The notes: generated by a model not told the origin, from the sequence alone. A stretch of 64,000 bases of DNA from an uncultured Gammaproteobacteria bacterium (GCA_964404275.1 CAYOJH010000002.1:19042-83041), one strand, 5' to 3'. Positions 11,580-58,793 are shown, counted from the stretch's first letter. Program-made: numbers and translations.

Positions 11580-12209
11580 ATGCTGCGCCTCTTTTTCCTC
11601 CGGCACGGCAATACGTTCGAGGACGGCGAGGCCTCCTGCCAGATCGGCGCCAAGACCGACATTCCACTGACCGCCCAGGGCCGCGCGCAAGCCGAAAAGG
11701 CCGCCGACTTTTTCGCCTCGCAGGACATCGCGCTCTCCGCCATCCATGCCGGCGGCTTGAAGCGCCAGAGAGAAACGGCGGAGATCGTGGCGAAAAAAAC
11801 CGGCGCGCCGGTCTTGGAAACGGACGCGCTCTCCGAGCTCGACTACGGCGCCTGGGAAAATCTCACGACCGACGAAGTCAAAGCGAAATTTCCCGCCTCG
11901 TACGAGGCGTGGAGCAAAGCGGGGGAGTGGCCGGCTGAATTCGCCGGCAGCGCCGAGGATGCGCGCCGACGCTTGTCGGTTTTTCTCGAGCGCATCCGCT
12001 GCTCGTACGAAGACGGTTCGGCCGTGCTGGCCGTGACGAGCCAGGGCATCATGAAACTCGTCACTTCCGTGATCGAACCGGAGCGTTGGACCGAGCTGCA
12101 GTCCCGCCGCGCCGTCGATGATCTCAAGGTCAAAACCGGCGCGATCTGCGAGATCGCGCTCGAGCGGGATGGATGGAGGACGATTGCCTGGAACGTCGTT
12201 CCGGAGTAA
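11580..12209 (+). CDS. Histidine phosphatase family protein (phosphoglycerate-mutase-like)
   Basis: LFFLRHGNT is the RHG catalytic motif. ATG is 2 nt after the kdsB stop. The gene sits between kdsB and kdsD where a Kdo-8-P phosphatase would be expected. Confidence 0.7.
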   Translation: MLRLFFLRHGNTFEDGEASCQIGAKTDIPLTAQGRAQAEKAADFFASQDIALSAIHAGGLKRQRETAEIVAKKTGAPVLETDALSELDYGAWENLTTDEVKAKFPASYEAWSKAGEWPAEFAGSAEDARRRLSVFLERIRCSYEDGSAVLAVTSQGIMKLVTSVIEPERWTELQSRRAVDDLKVKTGAICEIALERDGWRTIAWNVVPE

Positions 12210-12225
12210 GGTGGAATTCAAGCGT

Positions 12226-13233
12226 ATGAACGGAATTGCCGAGGCGAATTTAACGGCCAAGACCATGGATGATCTGTCGCAGGACGCGCAGGATCGCGAT
12301 TTTGTCGCCAAACAGGCGGCTGCCATTCAGTCCGTCCTGAAAAATCTGGACGGCGAACTGGACAAGGCCGTCGGTCTTTTGGTCGGCGCGCGCGGAAAAG
12401 TGATCGTGACCGGCATCGGCAAATCCGGTCACATCGGCATGAAAATCGCCTCGACCATGAACAGTCTCGGCACCATGGCGGCTTTCCTGCACCCGGCCGA
12501 AGCCTTCCATGGCGATCTCGGCCTCGTCGGCAAGGACGATATCGTCGTGATGCTGTCGCACAGCGGTGAAACCAAGGAAACGCTGCGGCTTTTGCAGCAC
12601 GTAAAGCGCCACGGCACGGCCGTGATCGCCATCACCGGCAACGACGCTTCGTCCATGGCCATGGCTTGCGACGCCGTGCTGACGTACGACGTCGAAGACG
12701 AAGGCTCGCCGCACAACTTGGCGCCGATGGCCTCGACCGCCGCGATGCTCGTGATCGGCGATCTCTTGGCTGCGCGCCTTTGCCGCGCGCGCGGCTTCAC
12801 GGCCCAGGATTTCGCCGCCTCGCATCCGGGCGGCGCGCTCGGCCTCCAGCTCACGCGCGTCTCGGAACTGATGAAAACAGGCGAAGCGGTGCCGCTCGTT
12901 TCCGCCCAAACCGCGTTTCTCGAAGCGCTGCGCGCCATGAACGCCAAAAAGCTCGGCGTGGTCGGCGTGACCGATCCACAAGGCCGCTTGATCGGCGTCA
13001 TGTCCGACGGCGACGTCCGCCGCTTCGTATCTTCAGAACGATTTTCGCTCGAGGCGCCCGTTTCCGACGCAATGACGCCGCATCCGAAAGTCATCGGCGC
13101 CGAGGATTCGTTGAAAGACGCCTTGGCGTTGATGGAACAATACAAGATCACGGTGCTGTTCGCGCTTGATCGGGACGGCAAGCCGCAAGGCGTCATCCAC
13201 ATGCATCACATCATCGAAGGAAAAATCGTATGA
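12226..13233 (+). CDS. kdsD: Arabinose-5-phosphate isomerase (KdsD/KpsF; SIS domain plus tandem CBS domains)
   Basis: SIS motif VIVTGIGKSGHIGMKIASTMNSLGT, MLSHSGET, and C-terminal CBS pair. AAGGTGG Shine-Dalgarno is present. Confidence 0.85.
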   Translation: MNGIAEANLTAKTMDDLSQDAQDRDFVAKQAAAIQSVLKNLDGELDKAVGLLVGARGKVIVTGIGKSGHIGMKIASTMNSLGTMAAFLHPAEAFHGDLGLVGKDDIVVMLSHSGETKETLRLLQHVKRHGTAVIAITGNDASSMAMACDAVLTYDVEDEGSPHNLAPMASTAAMLVIGDLLAARLCRARGFTAQDFAASHPGGALGLQLTRVSELMKTGEAVPLVSAQTAFLEALRAMNAKKLGVVGVTDPQGRLIGVMSDGDVRRFVSSERFSLEAPVSDAMTPHPKVIGAEDSLKDALALMEQYKITVLFALDRDGKPQGVIHMHHIIEGKIV

Positions 13234-14063
13234 GCGCGGCACAGCGGCATATCGCGATCGGCGGTTTCGCGGCCGGCAACGACTTGCCGTTTTTCTTTAT
13301 CGGCGGTCCCGACTCCCTCGAGAACCTGGAGCACGCCATGAAGATGGCGACCGAAATCAAAAAGATCTGCGACGCGCTGGGTATCCCGTACGTTTTCAAA
13401 GCCTCCTACGACAAAGCCAACCGCACCTCGGCCAAGAGCTTCCGCGGCGTCGGCCTGGAACGGGGGATCGAGATCCTCTCCGCGATCAAGCGCGAACTGG
13501 GCATCCCGGTCACGACCGATTTTCATACGGCGGAAGAAGCGGAAAAAATCGGTCCCGTCGTCGACATGTTGCAGGTGCCGGCGCTCTTGTCGCGCCAAAC
13601 CGATCTGATCCAGGCCGCGGCCAAGCACGCCAAGGTCGTCAACATCAAGAAAGGCCAGTTCATCGCGCCGCATGACATGCGCCAGGTCATCGCCAAGGCG
13701 ACGCTGGCGGGCAACGAGAATATCCTGGCCACCGAACGCGGCTACATGTTCGGCTACAACGACGTGGTCGCCGACATGCGCTCGCTCCACGAAATGAAAA
13801 AGACGGGTCATCCCGTGATTTTCGACGCCGCGCATACGGCCCAAACGCCCAGCACGAACGGTGAATCGTCCGGCGGCGATCGGACGCTCATGCCGCCGCT
13901 CGCCCGCGCCGCCGTGGCGGTCGGCGTAGCTGGCATTTTCATGGAAGTCCACGATGATCCGGACAACGCGCCGGTCGACGGCCAGAGCTCGCTGGACCTC
14001 AAGGATCTGAAATCCGCGCTCGCGACCCTCAAGGAACTCGACCGCGTCGTCAAAGGCGCGTAA
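13230..14063 (+). CDS. kdsA: 2-dehydro-3-deoxyphosphooctonate aldolase (Kdo-8-phosphate synthase)
   Basis: DAHP/KDO8P synthase family motifs (LPFFFIGGP, KASYDKANRTS, FDAAHT). Overlaps kdsD by 4 nt. Confidence 0.9.
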   Translation: MSAAQRHIAIGGFAAGNDLPFFFIGGPDSLENLEHAMKMATEIKKICDALGIPYVFKASYDKANRTSAKSFRGVGLERGIEILSAIKRELGIPVTTDFHTAEEAEKIGPVVDMLQVPALLSRQTDLIQAAAKHAKVVNIKKGQFIAPHDMRQVIAKATLAGNENILATERGYMFGYNDVVADMRSLHEMKKTGHPVIFDAAHTAQTPSTNGESSGGDRTLMPPLARAAVAVGVAGIFMEVHDDPDNAPVDGQSSLDLKDLKSALATLKELDRVVKGA

Positions 14064-20870: not shown

Positions 20871-20927
20871 GCCTCCGTATTGTGGATGGTGAGAACGTTC
20901 TGATCTGATTTGACTACGCTTTCCCGT

Positions 20928-22997
20928 ATGACCACACGTCGCGGCCGACCGTTTTTTTATTACGTCTCGCTGCCATTCGCCTGGATCGGCCGGGGGATCG
21001 CGCGCCTCTTCAAACCCACGCCGCGCGGCAAGATCCGCTGGGCGGTCTTGAGCGTGCTGATCCTGGCCGCTCTGGCCGGTTCCCTGGCGTATCCGCAGCC
21101 TTGGGATCGCGCCGCCGACGCTTGGAACGCCAAGGTCGTTGCGTCGTTCAGATTGCCGAACGCCTTGAAGATCCCGCACTTCAAGGACATTCCGTATCGC
21201 CTCGGCCTCGACTTGCAGGGCGGCACGCATCTTGTTTACGAGGCCGACGTCAAGGACATCCCTGATGCGGACCGCGCCAACGCGATGGAAGGCGTGCGCG
21301 ACGTGATCGAGCGGCGCGTGAACGCGTTCGGCGTGTCCGAACCGGTCGTTCAGACCAACAAAGCCGGCGACCATTGGCGCATCATCGTCGAGCTGGCCGG
21401 CGTCAAGGACGTCAACCAGGCCATCACGATGATCGGCGAGACCCCGATCTTGGAATTCAAGGAACAGAATGACGTCAGCCAGATTCCCTTGACGGCCGAT
21501 CAGCAGAAGGAACTGGACGCGAAAAACGCCGTGATCAAAAAGCAGGCGACCGACGCGTTACACGCGGCGCTGACCAACCCGAATGATGCTTCTCTTCAAT
21601 GGGACAAGCTCGGCCCGGTCACCGAGGCGCAATATCCGGAACTTTGGAAATGGGCCGACACGCATCCGGGCGTGAAGATCGACGCCGCGCTGGTCGAAGA
21701 CCAGGACGGCTGGAACGTGCTGCGCGTCAACGGCAAGGACACCTCGCAGCTCGAAGATCACGCGAGTCATATTTTGATCTGCTATCAGGGCGCCCAAAGC
21801 TGCCAAGAGCCGCTCACTAAACAGCAGGCTTTGGATCAGATCACCAAGCTGCGCGCCGAAGTCACGCCGCAGAACTTCGCCGAAAAGGCCAAGGCCAACT
21901 CGACCGACGGATCGGCCCAGACGAACTCCGGCGACCTCGGCTGGTTCACCAAGGACACGATGGTCAAGGAATTCGCCGACGCCGTCTTCGCCATGAAGAC
22001 GGGCGATATTTCGCAGCCGGTCGAATCGCCGTTCGGTTACCACCTGATCTGGAAACAGGGCGAGCGTCCGTCCGTCCGTTACGACATGGATCGTCTTCAC
22101 TTCAAGAAAGCCACGGCGGCTGACGTCGCTCCGGCGGCCGATCCCTGGAAGAACACGGGCCTTTCGGGCAAGCACGTGGCGCACGCCCAAGTGGAATTCG
22201 ATAACACCACCAGCCAGCCGCAGGTGCTCCTGACCTTCAACGACGAAGGCAAGAAGCTCTTCGGCGAGATCACCAAGCGCAACGTCGGCAAGCTCGTCGC
22301 GATCTATCTCGACGGCCAGCCGATCTCCATTCCGCGCGTCCAGCAGGAGATCGACGACGGCAATGCCGTGATCTCCGGCAGCTTCGATATCAAGGAAGCC
22401 AAGCTGCTCGCCCAGCGCCTGAACGCCGGCGCCTTGCCGGTCCCGATCAAGCTGCTTTCGCAGGAGACGATCGGCGCTTCGCTCGGCCAGGATTCGCTGA
22501 CCAAGAGCCTCAAAGCGGGCTTCTACGGCTTCCTGATCGTCGTGCTGTTCATGATCCTGTATTACCGCCTGCCGGGCCTCCTGGCCTCCTTGGCGCTCGC
22601 GATGTACACGGCCTTCTCGCTCGCCGTCTTCAAGCTCCTCGGCATCACGCTGACGCTCTCGGGCATCGCCGGCGTGATCCTCTCGATCGGCATGGCCGTC
22701 GACGCCAACATCCTGATCTTCGAGCGCATGAAGGAAGAACTGAAGAACGGCCGTCCGCTCGATTCGGCCGTCAACGAAGGCTTCAAGCGCGCTTGGACGT
22801 CGATCCGCGACTCCAACATCTCCTCGCTGTTGACTTGCGCGATCCTGTATTCCTTCACCTCGAGCTCGGTTCGCGGCTTCTCGGTCACGCTCGCGCTCGG
22901 TATCGTCATCTCGCTGTTTTCCGCCATCACCGTGACGCGCTCGCTGCTCCGTTTCGTCGGCCCGTGGGCGATGAAACATCGCTGGCTCTTCAAGTAA
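20928..22997 (+). CDS. secD: Protein translocase subunit SecD carrying an inserted parvulin-type PPIase domain
   Basis: SecD N-terminal TM, P1 head and C-terminal six-TM RND-like domain (GIAGVILSIGMAVDANILIFER). The ORF-track start at 20910 is a TTG; the first ATG is 20928. Confidence 0.9.
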   Translation: MTTRRGRPFFYYVSLPFAWIGRGIARLFKPTPRGKIRWAVLSVLILAALAGSLAYPQPWDRAADAWNAKVVASFRLPNALKIPHFKDIPYRLGLDLQGGTHLVYEADVKDIPDADRANAMEGVRDVIERRVNAFGVSEPVVQTNKAGDHWRIIVELAGVKDVNQAITMIGETPILEFKEQNDVSQIPLTADQQKELDAKNAVIKKQATDALHAALTNPNDASLQWDKLGPVTEAQYPELWKWADTHPGVKIDAALVEDQDGWNVLRVNGKDTSQLEDHASHILICYQGAQSCQEPLTKQQALDQITKLRAEVTPQNFAEKAKANSTDGSAQTNSGDLGWFTKDTMVKEFADAVFAMKTGDISQPVESPFGYHLIWKQGERPSVRYDMDRLHFKKATAADVAPAADPWKNTGLSGKHVAHAQVEFDNTTSQPQVLLTFNDEGKKLFGEITKRNVGKLVAIYLDGQPISIPRVQQEIDDGNAVISGSFDIKEAKLLAQRLNAGALPVPIKLLSQETIGASLGQDSLTKSLKAGFYGFLIVVLFMILYYRLPGLLASLALAMYTAFSLAVFKLLGITLTLSGIAGVILSIGMAVDANILIFERMKEELKNGRPLDSAVNEGFKRAWTSIRDSNISSLLTCAILYSFTSSSVRGFSVTLALGIVISLFSAITVTRSLLRFVGPWAMKHRWLFK
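21759..22064 (+). other. Parvulin (PpiC-type) peptidyl-prolyl isomerase domain embedded in the SecD periplasmic head
   Basis: HASHILI...SGDLGWFTKDTMVKEFADAVFAMKTGDISQPVESPFGYHLIWK matches the parvulin signature (HIL, GGDLGWF, MV..F, S.PV.S.FGYHLI). Confidence 0.7.
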
Positions 22998-23001
22998 ACG
23001 T

Positions 23002-23919
23002 ATGCTGCGCATCACCCAACATCGCGCGAAATTCTTCATCCTCTCCGGACTGGCCATGACGCTGTCGCTCGCGGCCTGGCTTTTCTGGGGCCTCAAGCCC
23101 GGCATCGACTTCACCGGCGGTTCGCTCTTGGAGCTCTCGTTCTCGCAGAATCCGCCGCCCATTTCGGCCATCGTCGATACGGCCAAAACCTCGCTCGGCA
23201 ACGCCCAGGAAGAAGTCACGGCTCAGCCGATCGGCGCGAACGGCGTCGTCCTGCGCATGCCGCCGATCGAAGAGGGCGCCCACCAGAAGCTCGTGACCGA
23301 TCTCAAGAGCGCCTACGGCAAGGACGGCAACGCGCTTGAAGAAAAGCAATTCCAGTCGATCGGACCCGTGATCGGCGCCGAACTCCAGCAAAAAACGATC
23401 TACGCCGTCGTCGGCGCGATCCTGGCGATCGTCCTGTTCATCACCTACGCCTTCCGCAAGGTTTCGTATCCGGTCGCGTCTTGGAAATACGGCGTCTGCA
23501 CGATCGTCGCGCTCTGCCACGACGTGCTCATCCCGGTCGGCGTCTTCTCGGCGCTCGGCCATTTCCGCGGCGTCGAAGTCGGCGCCTGGGTCGTGACCGC
23601 GCTCTTGACCGTCCTCGGCTTCTCGGTGCACGACACGATCGTCGTGTTCGACCGCATCCGCGAAAACCTGGCGCACGCCGGACGGATGTCGTTCGAGGAC
23701 GTCGTCAACCGCAGCATGAACGAGACGCTCGGCCGCTCGATCAATACCTCGCTGACCGTCATGCTGGTCTTGCTCGCGACTTACGCGTTTGGAGGCGCTT
23801 CCATCAAGGACTTCATCCTGACCATGATCGTCGGCGTCGGCGTCGGCACCTACTCCTCGATCTTCGTGGCCTCGCCGCTCCTGGTCTCCTGGCACCTGCG
23901 CTCGCAGAAAAAGCGCTAG
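23002..23919 (+). CDS. secF: Protein translocase subunit SecF
   Basis: Six-TM SecF with a periplasmic domain and the conserved TM4-6 motifs (TIVVFDRIREN, SINTSLTV). Confidence 0.92.
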   Translation: MLRITQHRAKFFILSGLAMTLSLAAWLFWGLKPGIDFTGGSLLELSFSQNPPPISAIVDTAKTSLGNAQEEVTAQPIGANGVVLRMPPIEEGAHQKLVTDLKSAYGKDGNALEEKQFQSIGPVIGAELQQKTIYAVVGAILAIVLFITYAFRKVSYPVASWKYGVCTIVALCHDVLIPVGVFSALGHFRGVEVGAWVVTALLTVLGFSVHDTIVVFDRIRENLAHAGRMSFEDVVNRSMNETLGRSINTSLTVMLVLLATYAFGGASIKDFILTMIVGVGVGTYSSIFVASPLLVSWHLRSQKKR

Positions 23920-24005
23920 AAAAAGAGGAAAAAAGCCTCTTCCAAAAATCCGAAAAATATGCTACGCTTCCGCCGACACGGGAGCGTCGCATTTTTTATC
24001 CGTCC

Positions 24006-25331
24006 ATGCCGCAGATCGTCATCGACCTTTCGCCTTTGTACGCGCTGATGGACAAGTCCCCGCTCCAGATCGCCTGGACGGTTTTCGCGTACGGCGGCTG
24101 GATTCCGTTCGTTTGGGTGCTGTGGAAAGGCTTATCGGATCTCTGGCTCCTGTCCCGCCAGGAAAAATACGCGCCGACCATCACTTACATCGTGCTCAGC
24201 ATCAACATCCCCAGGATGAACGAGCAGAGCCCGAAGGCCGTCGAACACATCTTCACGCACATCGCCGGCACGTATTCCTCGCCGAACTGGAAGGAAAAGT
24301 GGATCCAGGGCAAGTTCACGCCGGCCTTTTCGTTCGAATACGCTTCGCTCGAAGGCTACACGCAATTCATCGTGCGCTGCCCGATCCAGTTCCGCGACCT
24401 GATCGAAGCCTCGATTTTTTCGCAGTATCCGGACGCCGAGATCGCCGAGATCGCCGATTACACCAAGAGCGTGCCGCACAGCTTCCCCGATCCCGAATGG
24501 GACTGCTGGGGCACCGAATTCGTCCTCTCGAAGCCGAGCGCCTATCAGCTTCGGACCTACCCGGAATTCGAGCACGAGCTCTCCGGCGAGCTGAAGGATC
24601 CGCTCTCGACGCTGCTCGAGACGCTTTCGCGCCTGCGGAAAGGGGAACAGGTCTGGATCCAGCTTTTGGTCTATCCGCGCGATCAGTCCTGGATGCTGGA
24701 CTCCGCCAAAGTCGCCGCCAAAATGAAGGGCAAGGAAATCAAGAAGAAGCCGCCGGCTTGGCAGCACTTCGTCGAGGAAATGTTCAGCCTGGTCACCATG
24801 GGCGTGAGCCAGGTGGTCGGCGTGGGCGGCGAGGCCGAGAAAAAGCCGGAAGCGCGGCCGGAGAACAAGCTGTCGACCATGTCGACGGGCGAAAAAAAGG
24901 TGCTCGAGAAGATCGAAGAGAAAATGTCCAAGATCGGCTTCGGCGTGAAAATGCGCTTCGTCTATGTCGGCAAGCGCGACGTCTTCCGCAAGGGCCCGAT
25001 GATCTCGATGGTCCGCGGCGCGCTCGGGCTGTTCGGCTCGCTCGACGGCAACAGCTTCAAGAACTACGGCAAAGCCGCGCCCAAGACCGATTATTTCTGG
25101 CAGCGCTGGAGCGCCGATGAGAAGAAAACCAGGATTATCAGGCGTTTTTCGGGCCGCTCGTCCGCCGGCGCCGACCGTTTCATCTTGAACGTCGAAGAAC
25201 TGGCCAGCCTCTGGCACTTCCCGCAGATCCTGGTCAAGGCGCCGCTGCTCAAGAAGGTCGAATCGCGCAAGGTCGAACCGCCGTTCTCCTTGCCGGAAGT
25301 GCCGCCGGGGCTGCCTGAACCGAACGCTTGA
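24006..25331 (+). CDS. Hypothetical single-pass membrane protein, partner of the downstream ATPase
   Basis: N-terminal TM (LQIAWTVFAYGGWIPFVWVLW) followed by a roughly 400-aa soluble domain. Start set at the first ATG after the secF stop. Its stop overlaps the TTG/ATG region of the next gene. Confidence 0.55.
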   Translation: MPQIVIDLSPLYALMDKSPLQIAWTVFAYGGWIPFVWVLWKGLSDLWLLSRQEKYAPTITYIVLSINIPRMNEQSPKAVEHIFTHIAGTYSSPNWKEKWIQGKFTPAFSFEYASLEGYTQFIVRCPIQFRDLIEASIFSQYPDAEIAEIADYTKSVPHSFPDPEWDCWGTEFVLSKPSAYQLRTYPEFEHELSGELKDPLSTLLETLSRLRKGEQVWIQLLVYPRDQSWMLDSAKVAAKMKGKEIKKKPPAWQHFVEEMFSLVTMGVSQVVGVGGEAEKKPEARPENKLSTMSTGEKKVLEKIEEKMSKIGFGVKMRFVYVGKRDVFRKGPMISMVRGALGLFGSLDGNSFKNYGKAAPKTDYFWQRWSADEKKTRIIRRFSGRSSAGADRFILNVEELASLWHFPQILVKAPLLKKVESRKVEPPFSLPEVPPGLPEPNA

Positions 25332-25336
25332 GCGCT

Positions 25337-27241
25337 ATGCCTCCGTATCCCGCCGTGCCGTACAACCACGATCACGAGAACGAGGTCATTCCGTTCGCCG
25401 AGACGAATTTCCGCGGCCAGAACCGCGCGTTCGGCATCAAGACGGACGACCGGCGCCGCCACGTCTACGTGATCGGCAAGACGGGCATGGGCAAAACGAC
25501 CCTGCTCGAAAATTTCGTGATGTCCGACATCTACGCCGGGCATGGCTTGTGCTACATCGATCCGCACGGCGACACGGCCGACAAGATTCTGGATTTCATC
25601 CCGCCGTGGCGCATCAACGACGTCGTCTATTTCAATCCGGCCGACATGGAATTTCCGGTCGGTTTCAACATCCTCGAAATCGCGAACGAGAATCAGAAGC
25701 ACCTGGTCGCTTCGGGCTTGATGGGCGTCTTCAAGAAGATCTGGCCGGACGTCTGGTCGGCCCGCATGGAATACATCCTGCTGAACTGCGTCTTGGCGCT
25801 GCTCGACACGCCGGGCTCGACGCTCCTCGGCATCAGCCGCATCCTGGCCGACAAGGATTTCCGCAAGAAAATCGTCGAGAACGTCAAGGACCCGGTCGTC
25901 AAGGGCTTCTGGCTCAACGAGTTCGCCAAATACACCGACAAATTCGCGTCGGAAGCGATCGCGCCGGTCCAGAACAAGGTCGGCCAGTTCCTGTCGAACA
26001 CGATCATCCGCAACATCGTCGCGCAGACCAAGTCGACGCTCAACGTCCGCGAGATCATGGACTCGCGGAAAATTTTCATCGTCAATCTCTCGAAAGGCCT
26101 GGTCGGCGAAGACTCCTCGAAGCTGCTCGGCGGCATGCTGATCACGCGCCTGCAGCTCGCGGCCATGGAGCGCGTCGACATGCCGGAAAAGGATCGCCAG
26201 GACTTCTACCTGTACGTCGACGAGTTTCAGAACTTCGCGACGGAATCCTTCGCCAACATTTTGTCCGAAGCCCGCAAGTACCGCTTGGCGCTGATCACGG
26301 CGCATCAATATATCGAGCAGCTCGAAGAAGAAGTCGCGGCCGCGGTCTTCGGCAACGTCGGCACGATCATCTCCTTCCGCGTGGGCGCCAACGACGCCGA
26401 GCATCTCGCCAAGGAATTCGCGCCGACCTTCGTCGAAGAAGACATCATCAACCTGGCCAAATACGAGGTCTATCTCAAGCTGATGATCGACGGCGTGGCC
26501 TCCTCGCCGTTTTCGGCCAAGACGCTTTCGCCGATCGCCAAAAGAACCGAAAGCCGCGAGAAGGTCGTCAACGCTTCGCGGCAGCGGTACGCGCTCACGC
26601 GCGAAGACATCGAAACCAAGGTCAACACCTGGGCCGGCTTCGACGAGGCGACCGGAACCTTCGTCGGCACGGCTCGCGCGGGCGCGACGCCGGGCGTCAC
26701 GGGCGCCGCGCCTCGGGCCGCCACGCCGGAAGGCACGCCGTTCAAGGAAACTTCCGATCGGCAATACACCGCCAATTGCTCGCGCTGCAATAAAGAATTG
26801 CATTTGAAATTCCCGCCCGATCCGAACCGGCCTTTCTACTGCAAAGAGTGCCTGCCGTTCGCGCGGGCCGAAGCCGCCGCCGCGCCCGCGAAGCCCGCGC
26901 CTCGTCCACCTGCGCCTTCAAGTCCGCCGCGCCCCGCCCCCAAAGCCGCCATCCCGCCGCCGCGCCCGGCTCCCGCCCCTGCCCCGCGCCCCTCGGCGCC
27001 TCCCAAAGCCGTCGAACGCCCGCTCCCGCCTCCGCCGAAGCCGGGCATGTTCGGCGGCAAGATCCGCATTGTGACGGGGGAGCAGGAGCCCGAGGCTCTC
27101 GCGCCGGCCGCCCAGGAGAGCCCTAAGCCGCTGCCCACGCCGCCCAGGCCGCCCGCGCCGCCTCGGCTGCCCCCGCTTTCTCAAAAAGTCCCGCCATCAG
27201 CCCAAAAACCGCCCTCTGAAACGCCTTTGCCTTCGGCGTAA
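25337..27241 (+). CDS. VirD4/TrwB-like (FtsK/HerA-superfamily) P-loop ATPase with C-terminal zinc ribbon and proline-rich tail
   Basis: Walker A VIGKTGMGKTT, YIDPHGD (compare T4CP DPKGE), Walker B FYLYVDEFQNF, EARKYRLALITAHQ (RKYG...Q motif of coupling proteins and HerA). Also CSRCNKE...YCKEC and a roughly 125-aa Pro-rich tail. No N-terminal TM helices. A TTG at 25328 is an alternative start. Confidence 0.7.
   Translation: MPPYPAVPYNHDHENEVIPFAETNFRGQNRAFGIKTDDRRRHVYVIGKTGMGKTTLLENFVMSDIYAGHGLCYIDPHGDTADKILDFIPPWRINDVVYFNPADMEFPVGFNILEIANENQKHLVASGLMGVFKKIWPDVWSARMEYILLNCVLALLDTPGSTLLGISRILADKDFRKKIVENVKDPVVKGFWLNEFAKYTDKFASEAIAPVQNKVGQFLSNTIIRNIVAQTKSTLNVREIMDSRKIFIVNLSKGLVGEDSSKLLGGMLITRLQLAAMERVDMPEKDRQDFYLYVDEFQNFATESFANILSEARKYRLALITAHQYIEQLEEEVAAAVFGNVGTIISFRVGANDAEHLAKEFAPTFVEEDIINLAKYEVYLKLMIDGVASSPFSAKTLSPIAKRTESREKVVNASRQRYALTREDIETKVNTWAGFDEATGTFVGTARAGATPGVTGAAPRAATPEGTPFKETSDRQYTANCSRCNKELHLKFPPDPNRPFYCKECLPFARAEAAAAPAKPAPRPPAPSSPPRPAPKAAIPPPRPAPAPAPRPSAPPKAVERPLPPPPKPGMFGGKIRIVTGEQEPEALAPAAQESPKPLPTPPRPPAPPRLPPLSQKVPPSAQKPPSETPLPSA
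26868..27241 (+). repeat. Proline-rich low-complexity coding repeat (PAPRP/PPRP units) in the ATPase tail
   Basis: Repeated AP(R/K)PP units in the translation and GCGCCCGC/CCGCCGCG units in the DNA. Confidence 0.6.
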
Positions 27242-27307: not shown

Positions 27308-27862
27308 ATGGAACGGTTGAAGGAAGCGCTGCTCTTACGCAGAATCCAGTCGGGGGACGAGACGGCGTTCATTGAGACGTACGACGTTTTTGGGCCTAAG
27401 ATCTATCGCCACGCCCTCTTTCGTACCAGTTCGCCGGAAACGGCGGACGACATCATGAGCGAGACCTTCGTGCGCGCCTGGCAATCGGTGCGCGTCAAGG
27501 CGGAAGAGATCCAGCACCTGAAAGCTTTTCTCTACCGCATCGCCGATAACCTGATCATCGACCATTATCGCCGCAACGCCCGCGCCGCCGTGGCCATCAG
27601 CGACGAGATCGAAGAAACGCTGCGCGCGCCGGGCGATCCGCATGAGGAAATGGATCGTCTGCTGAAAAGCGAGCGCCTGGGTCAAGCCCTCTCCCGCCTG
27701 CGCCCCGAAGTCCGCGATCTGCTGGTCATGCGCTACATCGACGATCTGCCGATCGAGCATATCGCCGAACTGACCGGAAAAAAGAAAAACGCCGTATACG
27801 TGGCCCTGCACCGGGCCGTCAAAGAACTGAAACTCGCATGTCCTGCCACCCCCGAGAATTAA
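27308..27862 (+). CDS. ECF-type RNA polymerase sigma-70 factor
   Basis: Region 2 (YRHALFRTSS...DIMSETFVRAW) and region 4 HTH (LPIEHIAELTGKKKNAVYVALHRA). Confidence 0.85.
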   Translation: MERLKEALLLRRIQSGDETAFIETYDVFGPKIYRHALFRTSSPETADDIMSETFVRAWQSVRVKAEEIQHLKAFLYRIADNLIIDHYRRNARAAVAISDEIEETLRAPGDPHEEMDRLLKSERLGQALSRLRPEVRDLLVMRYIDDLPIEHIAELTGKKKNAVYVALHRAVKELKLACPATPEN

Positions 27863-28626
27863 AAAGACTCCGCCGCATTCCGGTCCCGGAAAGCGTGCTC
27901 GAAGCCGGCCGCAAACGCCTGCTGGAGTTCATGGCTGAAACGCCGATGGTGCCTCTGGGCCGCCGTCCGATGCTTTTGCGTTGGAGGCCAGCGGCCGTCA
28001 TGCTTCTCGTGGCGGTTTTCGTGACTTCGGGAGGCGGCATCGTCTTCGCCGCCCAGCGCGCGCTGCCGGGCGATCACCTGTATGCCCTGAAGCTGGCAAG
28101 CGAGGAGGTTCAGGAACGCCTGGCGATCTCGCCCGCGCAGAAATTCGCGGTCCAGGCATCCCACGCGGCCCGGCGCCTCGACGAGACCGAGCAGCTCATG
28201 CAGCGCAACGGCCTCGCGCCGCAGGAACGCGTCCTGCGCGTCCAATCGGCCCTCAAAGCGTATGAATCGCATCTCTTCGCCATGAACGTCATCGCGCTCA
28301 CGATGGCCGTCAATCATCCGAAGTCCGAAGACGGACGGAAATCGATCCAGGCCGCCGAGCGCGTGCTCGACCGCCACGCGGCCATGATCGCCTCCGCCAC
28401 CGCCGCGCAGCCGGCCATGACGGATGCGGTGCTGGATCCGATCGACGAGGACATCGAATTGCAAACCGACATGATGGGGGTCATGCCCGCCGCGTCCGGC
28501 TCCGATTCCGAAGAGGAGAATCTGCAGCACCGTCATGAAGAACGCACCCGGAAGATCGAAGAGCATCTGAAGTCGCTGCAGCTCGATCTGGGCGGAAGAT
28601 CGCTTCAACCGATGCCGAAATCGTGA
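27838..28626 (+). CDS. Putative anti-sigma factor, membrane protein with a DUF5667-like domain
   Basis: Overlaps the sigma gene. TM segment AAVMLLVAVFVTSGGGIVFAA then LPGDHLYALKLASEEV, the hallmark of DUF5667. Confidence 0.6.
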   Translation: MSCHPRELKRLRRIPVPESVLEAGRKRLLEFMAETPMVPLGRRPMLLRWRPAAVMLLVAVFVTSGGGIVFAAQRALPGDHLYALKLASEEVQERLAISPAQKFAVQASHAARRLDETEQLMQRNGLAPQERVLRVQSALKAYESHLFAMNVIALTMAVNHPKSEDGRKSIQAAERVLDRHAAMIASATAAQPAMTDAVLDPIDEDIELQTDMMGVMPAASGSDSEEENLQHRHEERTRKIEEHLKSLQLDLGGRSLQPMPKS

Positions 28627-53545: not shown

Positions 53546-54973
53546 TTATTGGGCCAAGGCGGTTTGCGCGGAGGCCGGCGCCGCGGCCGGGATGCCGGTG
53601 ACCGGCTGGCCGAGCGGGTGCAGGTTCAAGACGGCGTCGGTCGTCCAGATGATGCGCTTCCAGGAATAGCCGAGCTGTTCGAAGGCTTCGCCCGAGATGA
53701 TCGGCCGACGCTGGCCGTTCGAAATCACGAAGACCGCCTTGTGCGCGCCGGGGCTGGTGATCAGATCGCCGTCATTGAAGAGGAGAGGAGAGGCCGTCTC
53801 GTATTTCGCGAGCGCGTCCGGCGCGACGACGCTGATCCGCTTGTTCGGATAATCGGCTTTCATGATTGAGGCGTCGATGATCGGGCTCTTCTTGCCGCCT
53901 TCGACGAAATAGACGCCGCCGGTCTTTTTGTCCTGAAGCAGGGCGCCGGTCGGGTAGGCGCTCTTCAGCGTGATCGGGTCGCCATCGGCGTACGGCGCGA
54001 GGTCGGTCGGATCGACGTCATCGACTTCTTCCGGATCGAAGCCGATCTCGCGGAAGACTTCCATCGAGGCGATCGGCCGCTTTTTGTCGCCGACCAAAAG
54101 ATAGATGGTTCCCGTGCCCGGATCGCGGACGAGGGAATAGTCGGCGAATTGGATCGGCGCGCCGTCTTCAAAACCGGCCAGCACCGCGTCGGAGACGGGG
54201 ATGATTTTTTTCGCGTCGACGCGCGTATGCAGCGCACTCTTGTTGGCGAAGGCGCGCTTCAGGCCGCTCTGGATCAGATAGACCGTGCCGTCGGAACCGG
54301 AGAGCGCCGAGCCGTCCGGATAACCGAGCGAGAACCACTGGTCCCAGATCGTCCGCAGATTCTGGTTGCCGTGGAGATGCGGCGTATACGTATAGAGGAT
54401 GGCCGAAGCGAGGTTGGCGGGGGTCACCTGCTGGCCGTCGATGGCCACGGAGATGCCGGGAAAATAGCCGAAGGACCGCGCGGCGCCCGAGGTGTCCTGA
54501 TCGTAGATGTAGCGCACGAACGAGGCCGCGTTCACGATCTGCGAGGTGAAGCCGCGATAGCGCTGCCAGTTCGGGTCGTCGCAGGTCGAGCCGTCTGGGC
54601 GTCCGTAACCGGCGGCCCAATCGATCTGGCATTGACTGGGACCGCGGTCATCCACCAGGCTCTGCTCTTTCTGGATGAGGGCGAGCAGGAAGCGCGGATT
54701 CACGCCGGCCGCCTTGCCGTAGTAGTCGACGAGATAGCCCGGCGTCTTCATGGAGCCGTCGAGATCCGTAAATTTCATGGACGCCAGCGCGCCGCCGTGG
54801 GCCACCAGGAATTTTTGCGAAAAGCCGTCCGGCACGTTGATATCGGTCAGGTCGCTGTCGGACAGGACGTAGCCCGGATCGGCGTCCGAGGCGGCGCGCA
54901 CGGGAAATGCGGCCATGAGCAGCGAAATCTGCAGGAAAATCAGCAAGAATTTGCGCATAAGCGCCCTCAGCAT
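53546..54973 (-). CDS. Secreted hypothetical protein with a roughly 60-aa internal repeat array
   Basis: Signal peptide MLRALMRKFLLIFLQISLLMAAFPVRA. Repeats of the form G-x-[IV]Y[LF][IV]-x2-G-x-[KR]-[RS]-P-I occur at least four times. The first 266 codons of the ORF-track entry are antisense to htrA and were rejected. Confidence 0.5.
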   Translation of the reverse strand: MLRALMRKFLLIFLQISLLMAAFPVRAASDADPGYVLSDSDLTDINVPDGFSQKFLVAHGGALASMKFTDLDGSMKTPGYLVDYYGKAAGVNPRFLLALIQKEQSLVDDRGPSQCQIDWAAGYGRPDGSTCDDPNWQRYRGFTSQIVNAASFVRYIYDQDTSGAARSFGYFPGISVAIDGQQVTPANLASAILYTYTPHLHGNQNLRTIWDQWFSLGYPDGSALSGSDGTVYLIQSGLKRAFANKSALHTRVDAKKIIPVSDAVLAGFEDGAPIQFADYSLVRDPGTGTIYLLVGDKKRPIASMEVFREIGFDPEEVDDVDPTDLAPYADGDPITLKSAYPTGALLQDKKTGGVYFVEGGKKSPIIDASIMKADYPNKRISVVAPDALAKYETASPLLFNDGDLITSPGAHKAVFVISNGQRRPIISGEAFEQLGYSWKRIIWTTDAVLNLHPLGQPVTGIPAAAPASAQTALAQ

Positions 54974-55022
54974 AGCACGCGAAAAGGTTGATTGGCAATC
55001 GCCCGGCAGGTACCATGGCGGC

Positions 55023-56144
55023 ATGGATATCCGCACACCCCGTTCCAGATTTTTGAGAGCGTCCGGTCTCGTTTTTTTGAACATCGCGGTCGCGCTGACG
55101 GTGCACTTCGCCTGGTCGGCCTGGCTGCCGGCGGCCGGCGCCGCGCAGAAACCGGTCGCGCCGCTTACGGACGAAGGCCGCATGATCCAGACGATCGCCA
55201 AAACGTCGCCGGCCGTCGTCTCGATCGTCGTCCAGCAGCATGGACCGAACGATGCGATCATCAACGTCGGCAGCGGTACCGGCTTTCTGGTCGACGCGAA
55301 CGGCCTGATCGCCACCAACCGCCACGTGGCCTTTCGCCGCGACGCCGTGCTGACGGTCCTCCTGAGCGACGGACGCTCGTTCCCCGCGCAGGTGGCCGAC
55401 ATCGATCCGGTCAACGATTTGGCGCTGCTCAAAATCGAGGCGTCCGGCTTGCCGACCTTGGCGCTCGAAACCGATGACAACCTGCATCTCGGCCAGACCA
55501 CGATCGCGATCGGCAACGCGCTCGGCAAATACGCCAACACCGTCACGCACGGCATCCTTTCGGGCGTCGATCGCAACATCGATGCCGCCAACAACGTGAC
55601 GGGCGCGACCGAACAGCTGGAAGAATTGCTGCAGACCGACGCCGCCATCAACGAAGGCAACTCCGGCGGCCCGCTCCTGAACCTGGGCGGCAAGGTCATC
55701 GGCATGAACACGGCGGTCGAGACGGACGCGCAGGGCCTCGGCTTCGCGATTCCGGCTTCCGAAATTCGCAAAGTCGTCGATTCCTACCATATGTACGGAG
55801 CGATCGCGCGTCCGCGCCTCGGCGTCCGCTATTTCATGATCACGCCCGACCTGCAGATCGAAAAGAAGCTTCCGTACGGCTACGGCGCGCTGGTCGGGAC
55901 CGATACGCCGGGCGAGCCCGTCGTGCTGGCCAACAGCCCCGCCGCCGCGGCCGGCCTCATGGACGGCGACATCATCCTCGAGATCAACGGCAAAAAGCTC
56001 GAAGGCAAGATGACGCTGGCTAAAGTCGTCTTGGGCTTGCATGTCGGCGACGCGATCGCGCTGAAAGTCGTGCGCGGCGGCGTGGAGCTGACGCTGACCG
56101 CCCGGCTCGACGCCCAGCCGCCGTACGTCACGGACGCGCCATGA
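55023..56144 (+). CDS. htrA: HtrA/DegP-type trypsin-like serine protease with PDZ domain
   Basis: Catalytic triad contexts (TNRHV, D...L, GNSGGPL) and a C-terminal PDZ. N-terminal TM anchor. Confidence 0.88.
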   Translation: MDIRTPRSRFLRASGLVFLNIAVALTVHFAWSAWLPAAGAAQKPVAPLTDEGRMIQTIAKTSPAVVSIVVQQHGPNDAIINVGSGTGFLVDANGLIATNRHVAFRRDAVLTVLLSDGRSFPAQVADIDPVNDLALLKIEASGLPTLALETDDNLHLGQTTIAIGNALGKYANTVTHGILSGVDRNIDAANNVTGATEQLEELLQTDAAINEGNSGGPLLNLGGKVIGMNTAVETDAQGLGFAIPASEIRKVVDSYHMYGAIARPRLGVRYFMITPDLQIEKKLPYGYGALVGTDTPGEPVVLANSPAAAAGLMDGDIILEINGKKLEGKMTLAKVVLGLHVGDAIALKVVRGGVELTLTARLDAQPPYVTDAP

Positions 56145-58773: not shown

Positions 58774-58776
58774 ATG

Positions 58777-58785
58777 TGCTAGAAT
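58777..58785 (+). promoter_or_regulatory. Extended -10 element TGCTAGAAT 8 nt upstream of the G8-gene ATG (leaderless transcript likely)
   Basis: TGn-TAGAAT read from the sequence. No Shine-Dalgarno. Confidence 0.35.
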
Positions 58786-58793
58786 GCGTCCAT

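Follow-up and report, generated by a model that had tools for sequence, protein, structure and literature searches.

A DUF8128 membrane protein and a VirD4/TrwB-type ATPase as probable halves of one chromosomal machine in Patescibacteria

Patescibacteria, which live attached to host cells, account for a large part of bacterial diversity, and their macromolecule transport is poorly understood. In the stretch of 64,000 nucleotides analysed here (the window), two adjoining genes downstream of secDF, designated gene 1 and gene 2, raise the question of what an ATPase resembling the coupling proteins (T4CPs) of type IV secretion systems (T4SSs) does among housekeeping genes, and whether the membrane protein encoded beside it belongs to the same machine.

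Gene order and chromosomal setting

The first-pass annotation described the two genes as an apparent operon directly after secF, with the stop of gene 1 overlapping the start region of gene 2. The adjacency holds (Table 1), but the TTGA overlap arises only with the TTG start; gene 2 more probably begins at the ATG, which is preferred because it agrees with the database protein P0001 and with the N-termini of homologues, and the two genes are then 5 nt apart. A DUF8128 gene, the family to which gene 1 belongs, lies directly 5' of the ATPase gene in 66 of 81 species-representative loci, at a median spacing of about -2 to -2.5 nt; 15 of the 81 have no DUF8128 within 10 kb of the ATPase, indicating that the anchor is not obligatory in cis. 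Solo ATPase genes adjoin nrdR-nrdD-nrdG or other genes.

Table 1. Positions of the gene pair, its parts and the upstream context in the window
Feature	Position	Strand	Basis
secD (context), PpiC-type PPIase domain inserted in P1 region	20910..22997	+	Pfam
secF (context)	23002..23919	+	Pfam SecD_SecF_C 190.9 bits, Sec_GG
Terminator-like hairpin then T6, in 86-nt secF-gene 1 spacer	23964..23987	+	Consensus scan
Gene 1: DUF8128 (PF26449) putative membrane-anchor/scaffold subunit, 441 aa	24006..25331	+	ORF, family match
Gene 1 single N-terminal TM helix, residues 22-40	24069..24125	+	Hydrophobic Trp-rich stretch
Gene 1 predicted cytoplasmic alpha/beta domain, VirB4 N-terminal-domain-like fold, residues ~60-410	24183..25235	+	Fold search with predicted model
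Gene 1 conserved C-terminal motif, EELASLWHFP...KAPLLKK..E.PP..LP	25194..25295	+	Column conservation
Gene 2: soluble VirD4/TrwB-type ATPase, 634 aa (637 aa from TTG 25328)	25337..27241	+	ORF, Pfam
Gene 2 motor domain, residues 12-440, very strong conservation	25361..26647	+	
Gene 2 Walker A GKTGMGKT, residues 50-57	25475..25498	+	Sequence; G50 K51 T52 G53 G55 K56 invariant
Gene 2 predicted all-alpha insertion, residues 121-231, lying between the two Walker motifs	25688..26020	+	AF2 model
Gene 2 Walker B YLYVDE, residues 294-299	26207..26224	+	Sequence; Y296 D298 E299 invariant
Gene 2 EARKYRLALITAHQ motif, residues 314-327, sensor/arginine region of T4CP-type ATPases	26267..26308	+	Conservation
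Gene 2 zinc ribbon CxxC-x17-CxxC (CSRC-x17-CKEC), residues 484-508	26777..26851	+	Pfam, sequence
Gene 2 disordered tail, 129 aa, 36% proline, net basic	26852..27238	+	Sequence, AF2 model
Conserved island PGMFGGKIRIV in gene 2 tail	27041..27073		

A chromosomal, non-mobile module had been proposed from this window, and the wider comparison bears this out. A Pfam scan of the approximately 50 window proteins detected no T4SS, relaxase or phage gene, as claimed, and no integrase gene; no tRNA gene was found in the window, VirB3, VirB6 and VirB8 are absent from the window and from related loci, and T4SS genes are absent from the recurrent neighbours across the 81 loci. The pair is instead surrounded by secA, secDF, alaS, rpoA and ribosomal protein genes, and across the same genomes identity is 66% for the ATPase, 51% for SecD and 46% for SecF. 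The occurrence of the pair in 66 of 81 loci among housekeeping genes supports a chromosomal, vertically inherited core component of Patescibacteria (CPR), outside any conjugative element. Distant solo ATPases (38-46% identity) do occur in two integrative elements (L091 and L092) together with a P4-type integrase, an FtsK-like ATPase and Replic_Relax, and a 60%-identical solo ATPase lies on a phage-like CPR contig (L086), as would be expected if the pair had been left behind by a prophage or by an integrated element of conjugative or mobilisable type. That origin is nevertheless extremely improbable: DUF8128 is present in none of these elements, only 10 matches occur in 2.9 million viral contigs, the same housekeeping neighbours recur across Patescibacteria classes, the catalytic motifs are invariant, and the window, of uniform GC content (about 0.60-0.66), has no integrase, relaxase or tRNA gene.

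The proposed coupling to secDF stands as synteny only: in 32 of the 48 loci that could be tested, secF lies within 4.5 kb 5' of the pair, and the hairpin with its T6 tract between secF and gene 1 leaves co-transcription not established. The hairpin (nine pairs, six of them G-C) is itself weak evidence, the regional number of such sites not being above that in shuffled sequence. The SecD of the window contains SecD_1st, Rotamase_3 (residues 273-380), SecDF_P1_head and SecD_SecF_C domains, and the SecD of another locus (L001) shares this PpiC-insert architecture. The synteny could instead hint at protein export, with the pair working as a motor at SecYEG-SecDF, where it would feed in or pull out a particular set of proteins, perhaps surface proteins or proline-rich ones. 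The conserved order secD-secF-DUF8128-ATPase (secF directly adjacent in 17 loci), the presence of secA 5' of the pair in some loci, the protein-handling T4CPs DotL and Cag-beta among the structural matches, and the second-best fold match of DUF8128, to EccE, partner of an FtsK-like ATPase in ESX protein secretion, are all consistent with such a role. It appears improbable, however, given the hairpin, the Sigma70_r4/HARE-HTH gene that intervenes between secF and DUF8128 in 39 loci, the one third of testable loci in which secDF is not nearby, the solo ATPases located elsewhere, and the ability of small streamlined genomes to keep gene order without a functional link.

The membrane subunit and the motor subunit

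The length and single N-terminal TM helix given for gene 1 by the first-pass annotation are correct, but its statement that the protein has no recognizable family is not. The product is an exact copy of database protein P0121, and its Pfam family name is confirmed as DUF8128; since the PF26449 model is not in the local Pfam copy, the assignment comes from precomputed matches to P0121 and to its homologues (all 120 of those listed, from 1,276 word-index homologues). Cluster representatives matching gene 1 number 3,423 at E<=1e-3. The TM segment (IAWTVFAYGGWIPFVWVLW) falls inside a predicted helix spanning residues 19-58, and the remainder of the protein is probably cytoplasmic, because fused paralogues (described below) show no further TM segment before the ATPase. 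In a Foldseek search the best four matches were all TrwK chains, with EccE of the ESX type VII system as the second-best fold match; both fold searches started from the predicted model of gene 1. In hhalign, neither TrwK (0.3% probability) nor TrsD of pGO1 gave a significant match, so that the apparent link between DUF8128 and VirB4 is a structural one, through a predicted model. Conservation is concentrated in the C-terminal motif, where E397, E398, A400, H404, P406, E424, P426 and P430 are invariant or near-invariant in 96 sequences, and the motif recurs in the fused paralogue where DUF8128 meets the ATPase.

Gene 2 has more than 8,000 homologues and is routinely annotated in databases as a 'type IV secretion system DNA-binding domain-containing protein'. 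An HMM search supports the T4CP-type class proposed for it, with TrwB_AAD_bind (43.9 bits against a cut-off of 20.5), T4SS-DNA_transf, TraG-D_C and zf_Tbcl_2 above their cut-offs, and all motifs listed for it in the first-pass annotation are present, including DPHGD at residues 78-82. It lacks TM helices, as had been noted, with no 19-residue Kyte-Doolittle window above 1.5. Across 41 homologues the Walker A, Walker B and sensor motifs are invariant, the last at E314-L320, A325, H326 and Q327 (its counterpart in the TrwB alignment is KGRKAGLRVVAGLQ), indicating a motor that is probably catalytically intact and an active enzyme. The AF2 model is moderate overall (pLDDT 68, with residues 313-373 below 50), and its residues 121-231 form seven helices with pLDDT mostly 84-92, inside the stretch that hhalign aligns to TrwB 118-393; this region is the predicted counterpart of the T4CP all-alpha domain.

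The zinc ribbon and proline-rich tail were likewise recognized correctly. The ribbon (pLDDT 87-94) matches zf_Tbcl_2 (PF23477) at 27.6 bits against a cut-off of 27 and TIGR04272 at 28.9 bits, under the cut-off of 36; some homologues have the pattern CxxC...CxxH instead, and a domain of the zf_Tbcl_2 type binds zinc in small proteins of Methanosarcina mazei (PMC12704099). Homologue tails have a median length of 177 aa and a net charge of +12, and most terminate in PG[QE]xIxF, which is missing from gene 2 of the window.

Split pair, fused paralogue and known ATPases

On some of the fetched Patescibacteria contigs that bear the split pair, a TM segment, DUF8128 and the ATPase also occur fused in one chain of about 830 aa, and such fused proteins are encoded at L080:11200-13692 and L035:180-2777. 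Gene 1 matches the N-terminal half (E 1.6e-22) and gene 2 the C-terminal half (45% identity, E 3.5e-114), and each of the 120 best homologues found for the fused protein carries PF26449 together with PF10412. At one locus (L084) a T4SS_pilin gene lies 4.5 kb from the fused paralogue. The existence of this large single-chain family with the same architecture strongly supports the earlier suggestion that gene 1 supplies the TM anchor, and, with the tight abutment of the two genes across the phylum, suggests that the two proteins are one functional unit. Gene 1 as anchor and gene 2 as motor are thus very probably the halves of one ATPase.

Comparison with known systems places this ATPase near two families. 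T4CPs are defined, in a passage of PMC7431656, by a nucleotide-binding domain with Walker A and B motifs. Gene 2 has such a domain and, in the AF2 model, the all-alpha insertion that it has in common with TrwB of R388, DotL/IcmO and Cag-beta; its PDB sequence matches are TrwB and DotL only, and hhalign aligns it to TrwB over 257 columns that run from Walker A through the all-alpha region to Walker B (94.5% probability, E 8e-8), compared with 2.9% probability for VirB4/TrwK. Its tail could parallel the C-terminal extension by which T4CPs such as F TraD can recruit partners. Canonical T4CPs, however, have no DUF8128. Gene 2 lacks an N-terminal TM domain of its own, the TM helix being on gene 1 and in cis only in the fused paralogue, and it falls far below every curated NCBIfam equivalog or subfamily cut-off (TraD, VirD4-CD1115, TrbC), with 47.7 bits against 366 for SXT_TraD and 37.9 against 250 for CD1115. 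Unlike plasmid T4CPs it is chromosomal, phylum-wide, much more conserved and equipped with a zinc ribbon, and there is no genomic association with a T4SS or relaxase in the 64-kb window or among the recurrent neighbours of the 81 loci.

With VirB4 (TrwK of R388) the pair shares a two-part plan, an N-terminal alpha/beta domain of ~350-400 aa, whose fold the gene 1 model is predicted to have, and a C-terminal TrwB-like ATPase. In VirB4 both parts are in one chain; they are split in the window and joined in the fused paralogues, and the fused paralogue has 831 aa where TrwK has 823 aa. A separate, small N-domain-like protein directly 5' of a VirB4-like ATPase is known from pGO1 too (TrsD and TrsE; PMC12102498). 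Differing from VirB4, the ATPase is nearer VirD4 in sequence (TIGR00929 25.4 bits against a cut-off of 643), DUF8128 has no sequence likeness to TrwK or TrsD, and the DUF8128 module carries its own TM helix where VirB4 relies on VirB3; Patescibacteria also possess a separate clade of bona fide VirB4.

Other ATPases are more remote. EccE and EccC of ESX show a much weaker likeness to the pair, EccC having TM helices of its own and as many as three ATPase domains of FtsK type, and the ESX channel subunits EccB and EccD are absent here. FtsK/SpoIIIE, Streptomyces TraB, TcpA, HerA and the archaeal Ced ATPases, which bring a multi-helix membrane domain with them or work with a soluble partner (NurA), are less similar to the pair than VirD4/VirB4 in both structure and sequence; gene 2 scores 13 bits with FtsK_SpoIIIE and 22.5 bits with DUF87, both under cut-off, and 20.9 bits with NCBIfam CedD (cut-off 600). 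A PADLOC mad8 match of 55.6 bits and weak HerA matches might suggest an anti-phage defence or conflict system with a DptH/HerA/MADS-type ATPase, and the DptH/mad8 similarity is explained by shared T4CP-class ancestry. A defence role is very improbable, as the family is near-universal, syntenic and slow-evolving among housekeeping genes, quite unlike a defence island, PADLOC gives no match for DUF8128, and further genes of MADS, Dnd or HerA partners (nuclease, Sir2) are absent from the window.

Proposed mechanism and significance

Most T4SSs depend on a T4CP of the VirD4 type, so the pair might be the coupling protein of a Patescibacteria-type (MPF-FATA-like) T4SS encoded apart from the virB4 cluster, docking through DUF8128 and delivering proteins or DNA. 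A recent survey found 5,713 VirD4-type homologues in 2,918 of 3,035 Patescibacteria genomes, only 148 of them near virB4, so that T4SS clusters there usually have no T4CP nearby; t4cp is often distant from virB4 in other systems as well (Quinonero-Coronel et al. 2025, PMC12102498). The Southlakia T4SS cluster has no recognisable coupling protein (Wang et al. 2023), the predicted VirB4-NTD-like domain could bind the VirB4 partners VirB3 and VirB8, and the pilin gene near the L084 fused paralogue fits the same idea. We nevertheless regard it as unlikely. T4CP homologues occur in more genomes than VirB4, which was found in 2,417 of the 3,035; in Southlakia epibionticum the t4cp homologue was reported to be non-essential for epibiotic growth and the T4SS genes essential (PMC12102498); no T4SS gene is present among the recurrent neighbours or in the window; and, with split and fused forms counted, there are about two paralogues to a genome, which one T4SS would not obviously need. 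The survey's authors suggested exaptation for these 'orphan' homologues. The Southlakia result is at odds with the extreme conservation of the ATPase.

We favour, with a probability of roughly 0.55, a membrane-anchored two-protein ATPase of the VirB4/VirD4 clade that would act as a core, non-conjugative component, T4SS-independent or loosely T4SS-associated, in DNA handling at the membrane. It is proposed that this machine belongs to the VirB4/VirD4 clade of the HerA-FtsK superfamily and is presumably hexameric like its relatives, gene 1 contributing the TM helix and the VirB4-NTD-fold cytoplasmic domain and gene 2 the motor. In the R388 T4SS the VirB4 N-terminal domain ties the motor to membrane partners (VirB3 and the VirB8 tails), and here the ATPase may hexamerise on a DUF8128 scaffold at the membrane's inner face. 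Cargo or a partner might be recruited by the zinc ribbon together with the tail, which is long, basic and rich in proline and has short conserved islands, much as F TraD binds TraM through its C-terminal tail. ATP hydrolysis would then thread a polymer, DNA being the likeliest, or pass it on to a separate channel, since a single TM helix per subunit cannot form a conduit. DNA as the cargo is suggested by analogy and is held tentatively. A role in DNA uptake, exchange or export at the membrane of these host-dependent, naturally competent bacteria is a guess. Speculatively, split pair and fused paralogue could form a phylum-wide, T4SS-independent minimal translocation motor that joins a VirD4-type engine to a VirB4-type N-terminal scaffold with its own TM helix, intermediate between the two signature ATPases of type IV secretion and possibly near their common ancestor, for essential-in-nature DNA import or exchange, or for polymer export, at the host interface; we consider this broader picture doubtful.

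The novelty claimed for the pair is narrowed: DUF8128 and orphan T4CPs were already on record, and the family is known though uncharacterised, the 2025 survey having recorded thousands of such homologues (PMC12102498). What is new is the split DUF8128 and ATPase architecture; its substrate and partner channel are what we infer above. No precedent for a VirD4-like engine joined to a VirB4-like N-domain was found in the searchable literature. Few proteins in the compared loci are as conserved as the ATPase, yet it is named generically after conjugation and its partner is a DUF. An orphan T4CP thereby becomes a defined two-part machine, with a partner of predicted VirB4-NTD fold, split and fused forms on some contigs, and independence from T4SSs and mobile elements, and the pair bears on the evolution of VirB4 and VirD4 ATPases. 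Patescibacteria lack nucleotide biosynthesis and are naturally competent, and if the cargo is DNA, the pair would be a new candidate player in their DNA handling at the membrane.

Gene 2, a soluble coupling-protein-like ATPase

Gene 2 ends at 27241; it may start at TTG 25328 (637 aa), where a TTGA overlaps the stop of gene 1, or at ATG 25337 (634 aa), 5 nt downstream of gene 1. The ATG is the better fit to the database version of the protein (P0001) and to the N-termini of its homologues, so that the overlap of the two genes described in the first-pass annotation holds for the TTG start but becomes a 5-nt gap with the better-fitting one. An exact look-up of P0001 returned no record. Every motif that had been read in gene 2 was located in its sequence (Table), and its proposed lack of TM helices agrees with a count of zero hydrophobic segments. 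Among the families suggested for it, gene 2 lies above the Pfam cut-offs for TrwB_AAD_bind (43.9 bits against 20.5), TraG-D_C and T4SS-DNA_transf, but under that for DUF87; it also falls under the cut-off for FtsK_SpoIIIE, barely passes that for zf_Tbcl_2 (zinc ribbon) and is far under cut-off for all NCBIfam conjugation equivalogs. TrwB and DotL are its only sequence matches among solved structures. In a profile-wise comparison, the gene 2 alignment matched TrwB (R388 T4CP) at 94.5% probability (E 8e-8) over 257 columns, from Walker A via the all-alpha region to the sensor motif, and TrwK (R388 VirB4) at 2.9% over the P-loop only; the values for the pGO1 proteins were 9.5% over 284 columns for TrsK (T4CP) and 57% over 89 columns for TrsE (VirB4-like). 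Together, the profile comparisons and family matches place gene 2 by sequence among the VirD4/TrwB-type ATPases, and its motifs are those of a catalytically intact motor of the T4CP class. About 150 columns of the ATPase core are invariant in 41 sequences.

The gene 2 comparison list gave values of 18.6 for the DptH/DndH C-domain, 17.5 for the VirB4 C-terminal domain (4ag5), 16.5 for TrwB, 15.8 for DotL, 12.3 for Cag-beta, 11.7 for HerA and 7.6 for FtsK. A role of gene 2 as an FtsK replacement is disfavoured: its similarity to FtsK is low, and the occurrence of the term FtsK in two TM7x papers suggests that Saccharibacteria may encode FtsK. A role in anti-phage defence is likewise disfavoured, PADLOC having returned generic ATPase matches only.

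The C-terminal tails of gene 2 homologues are long, net-basic and proline-rich (median 177 aa, charge +12), and KIRIV and, at the very end, PG[QE]xIxF recur in most of them as conserved islands. The latter is absent from the window ATPase and from its two closest relatives, P0002 and P0006; a frameshift hiding it was dismissed, as the motif is absent from both other forward frames downstream of the stop. The CxxC-x17-CxxC domain binds zinc in small proteins of Methanosarcina mazei (PMC12704099). This type of zinc ribbon, here with an RGG-like tail behind it, also makes up separate small proteins encoded downstream of two ATPases that lack a DUF8128 partner, at a distance of ~2 kb in L018 and ~140 nt in L019, and in two other loci a shorter ATPase paralogue without the zinc ribbon directly follows the main ATPase as a tandem duplicate.

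Gene 1 and the predicted fold of DUF8128

Gene 1, identical to database protein P0121, is a 441-aa ORF with one N-terminal TM helix, as had been described; its sole hydrophobic segment lies inside a long predicted helix. The statement that it belongs to no recognizable family has to be corrected: it has zero matches in our local Pfam and NCBIfam copies, but precomputed annotation assigns PF26449 (DUF8128) to gene 1 and, among the matches listed, to its homologues. A DUF8128 profile search of 1.84 billion cluster representatives retrieved 3,423 members, with 1,129 reaching E<=1e-30. The AF2 model of gene 1, built from an input of 96 homologues, is good (pLDDT 84.7, pTM 0.77). In a Foldseek comparison of this predicted model, which covers PDB structures only, ranks 1-4 are all TrwK chains and the next is 6umm_A, a 285-residue chain of the ESX-3 complex that we take to be EccE3. 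The matched N-terminal domain of TrwK comprises residues 15-400; VirB3 wraps this domain in one VirB4 copy, whereas in another it is bound by the tails of VirB8 (Macé et al. 2022, PMC9259494). At the sequence level, homology of DUF8128 to VirB4 or TrsD was rejected: aligned by hhalign, the profile of 96 sequences gave no significant match to TrwK or to TrsD of pGO1, which has been reported as remotely homologous to the N-terminus of VirB4, and the DUF8128 profile found no match in the PDB at E<=1. The link to VirB4 is thus one of modelled fold only, and the model presents gene 1 as a partner that combines a TM helix with a predicted VirB4-NTD-like cytoplasmic domain.

Coordinates of the pair, its fused and solo relatives, and neighbouring features (gene 2 motifs and tail as located in the sequence)
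Feature	Location	Detail
Gene 1 (DUF8128)	window 24006-25331 (+)	
Gene 1 hydrophobic segment IAWTVFAYGGWIPFVWVLW	gene 1 residues 22-40	
Walker A GKTGMGKT	gene 2 residues 50-57	
DPHGD	gene 2 residues 78-82	
Walker B YLYVDE	gene 2 residues 294-299	
EARKYRLALITAHQ	gene 2 residues 314-327	
CSRC-x17-CKEC zinc ribbon	gene 2 residues 484-508	
Gene 2 C-terminal tail		129 aa, 36% proline
ATPase end without PG[QE]xIxF	window 27200-27241	
Terminator-like hairpin	window 23964-23987	
SecD with inserted PPIase	window 20910-22997	domain at residues ~273-388
SecD-PPIase fusion	L001:4910-7279	
ECF-type sigma factor	window 27308-27862	
DUF5667 protein	window 27838-28626	one TM
SIS+CBS and DAHP_synth_1 proteins	window 12118-14063	
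Protein with G8 and CEMIP beta-helix domains	window 58587-61424	945 aa
Protein without Pfam match	window 53546-55771, opposite strand	741 aa
Fused paralogue	L080:11200-13692	831 aa
Fused paralogue	L035:180-2777	866 aa as scanned, ORF stop to stop
Fused paralogue before dnaX	L084:10001-12520	
Fused paralogue before dnaX	L085:10001-12535	
Small zinc-ribbon proteins	L018:13934-14326; L019:12090-12461	
Tandem ATPase paralogues	L005:11617-13347; L015:8253-9701	
Sigma70_r4 + HARE-HTH, examples	L078:2-1099; L035:7351-8502; L052:7625-8644	~330-400 aa
Phage-like solo ATPase	L086:7860-9251	464 aa as scanned, ORF stop to stop
Integrative-element regions	L091:4313-12904; L092:1-7528	

Split pairs, fusions and solo copies

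Eighty species-representative loci found with the ATPase profile, together with L001 (exact look-up), were screened with HMMs of both proteins. In 66 of these 81 loci a same-strand DUF8128 gene immediately precedes the ATPase; the median distance between the DUF8128 stop and the start of the ATPase profile match is -2.5 nt, and the values run from -39 to +229. Two loci, L080 and L035, also contain a single ORF matching both profiles end to end, in which a TM helix, DUF8128 (E 1e-37 to 1e-43), an EELSSLFHFP junction motif and the ATPase (E ~1e-137 to 1e-145) follow one another; the N-half of the L080 protein is 24% identical to gene 1 (E 1.6e-22) and its C-half 45% identical to gene 2 (E 3.5e-114). 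The window holds zero fused copies. All of the best 120 matches to the fused form are 767-858 aa long, carry PF26449 and PF10412 and come from Patescibacteria-type assemblies, and the fused form is a large family. By the classical fusion argument the split products should therefore interact, and DUF8128 should lie in the cytoplasm, since the fused paralogue has no TM helix between it and the ATPase. Fusion and adjacency indicate that gene 1 and gene 2 form one unit. At ~830 aa, the fused paralogue resembles VirB4 (TrwK, 823 aa) in size and two-domain plan; the Pfam class of its ATPase is again T4CP-like.

The ATPase occurs without a DUF8128 partner in 15 of the 81 loci, beside nrdR-nrdD-nrdG, a HIT protein or other genes. 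An N-terminal 'HDHE' motif, considered as a DUF8128 docking signature, occurs in 20 of the 58 paired ATPases but in none of the 15 solo copies and is therefore lineage-specific and not diagnostic. In two unrelated genomes (L084 and L085) the fused paralogue is followed by dnaX (DNA polymerase III gamma/tau); L084 also has a T4SS_pilin gene 4.5 kb upstream of the fused paralogue.

Genomic setting and proposed function

The pair is chromosomal, vertically inherited, phylum-wide and slowly evolving. Window GC is uniform (~0.60-0.66) and tRNA genes are absent; among ~50 window proteins scanned against Pfam we found zero VirB4, relaxase, integrase or phage genes, in line with the first-pass annotation. 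The genes present include secA, secD, secF, mnmA, alaS, the S13-S11-S4-rpoA-L17 block, S9, a radical SAM enzyme at the position of rlmN, a YkuD transpeptidase, an HD protein and numerous cell-envelope polysaccharide genes. An ECF-type sigma factor gene starts 66 nt past the ATPase stop and overlaps that of an anti-sigma-like DUF5667 protein. A SIS+CBS protein (KpsF/GutQ-like sugar-phosphate isomerase) sits beside a KdsA-like DAHP_synth_1 protein, surrounded by large clusters of polysaccharide and glycosyltransferase genes; a CPR bacterium, being presumably monoderm, would not be expected to make KDO-type sugars. The 945-aa and 741-aa proteins may be large surface proteins. Related loci span Uhrbacteria, Magasanikbacteria, Buchananbacteria, Moranbacteria, Falkowbacteria, Nealsonbacteria and Parcubacteria. 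Many TPA metagenome contigs with a CPR-typical locus (L010, L013, L014, L017, L018 and others) bear the title 'uncultured Gammaproteobacteria bacterium' or 'Candidatus Saccharibacteria', which look like placeholder or wrong taxonomy.

The wider ATPase class has relatives in mobile elements, but an origin from a mobile element or prophage is disfavoured for the pair, which lies outside them, integrative elements containing distant solo relatives only. A scan of 2.9 million viral contigs yielded only 10 ATPase relatives, and 0 of 10 have DUF8128, so the pair was not encountered in the integrative context that the earlier annotation had set against its novelty. One solo ATPase, 60% identical to gene 2 and lacking both tail and DUF8128, is on a phage-like, 42%-GC IMG/VR contig (L086) that also encodes a 1000-aa protein and an M23 peptidase; it may represent a CPR phage with a captured host gene. 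Several others are 32-46% identical, and the two examined, both ~40% identical and on higher-GC contigs, have integrative-element neighbours. Both have a P4-type integrase, which is accompanied in L091 by an FtsK-like ATPase of 718 aa and a Replic_Relax protein, and in L092 by a 1198-aa protein without Pfam match.

The synteny of secDF, gene 1 and gene 2 noted in the window is conserved in part: among 48 pair-bearing loci with >=4 kb of upstream sequence, secF lies <=4.5 kb upstream in 32 (directly adjacent in 17), but not in the remainder. Across these 32 genomes with a linked secF, the ATPase is the most similar to its window counterpart, at a median identity of 66%, followed by SecD (51%), SecF (46%) and DUF8128 (39%). 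A Sec-linked role in protein handling is suggested by this synteny and by the EccE resemblance of DUF8128; the terminator-like hairpin, the gene inserted between secF and DUF8128 in numerous loci and the loci without secDF argue against it. In 39 of 81 loci, the gene immediately before DUF8128 encodes a protein with Sigma70 region 4 and HARE-HTH domains; where such a locus also has secF, this gene separates secF from DUF8128. It is absent from this position in the window. In the window SecD, the extracytoplasmic P1 region carries an inserted peptidyl-prolyl isomerase domain of the PpiC type, a fusion also seen in another Patescibacteria genome (L001).

We propose that DUF8128 would hold a ring of ATPase subunits at the membrane, that the zinc ribbon and the long, net-basic, proline-rich tail would recruit cargo or a partner, and that the cargo, by family analogy most likely DNA, would be handed to a separate channel, as a conduit needs more than one TM helix per subunit. 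The main rival to this proposal is a trans-encoded coupling protein of the Patescibacteria T4SS, and the essential Southlakia T4SS cluster has no recognisable coupling protein (Wang et al. 2023). This reading is weakened by three points: more genomes have the family than have VirB4, its Southlakia homologue is non-essential whereas the T4SS is essential, and its neighbourhoods are without T4SS genes. VirD4-type T4CP homologues number 5,713 in 2,918 of 3,035 Patescibacteria genomes, VirB4 occurs in 2,417 of the 3,035, only 148 of the 5,713 T4CP genes lie near virB4, epibiotic growth of Southlakia does not require its homologue, and exaptation of these T4CPs 'cannot be ruled out' (Quinonero-Coronel et al. 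2025, PMC12102498). The resulting ~2 homologues per genome fit the split and fused paralogues described here.

The observation made in the first-pass annotation is confirmed and its hedged interpretation supported. The family is already annotated and was earlier flagged as 'orphan T4CPs'; our searches of the literature returned nothing on DUF8128, its VirB4-like fold or the split/fused relationship. What is new is the anatomy, a VirD4-type engine on a predicted VirB4-type N-domain, together with the split/fused paralogy, the degree of conservation, and the independence of the family from T4SS loci and mobile elements.
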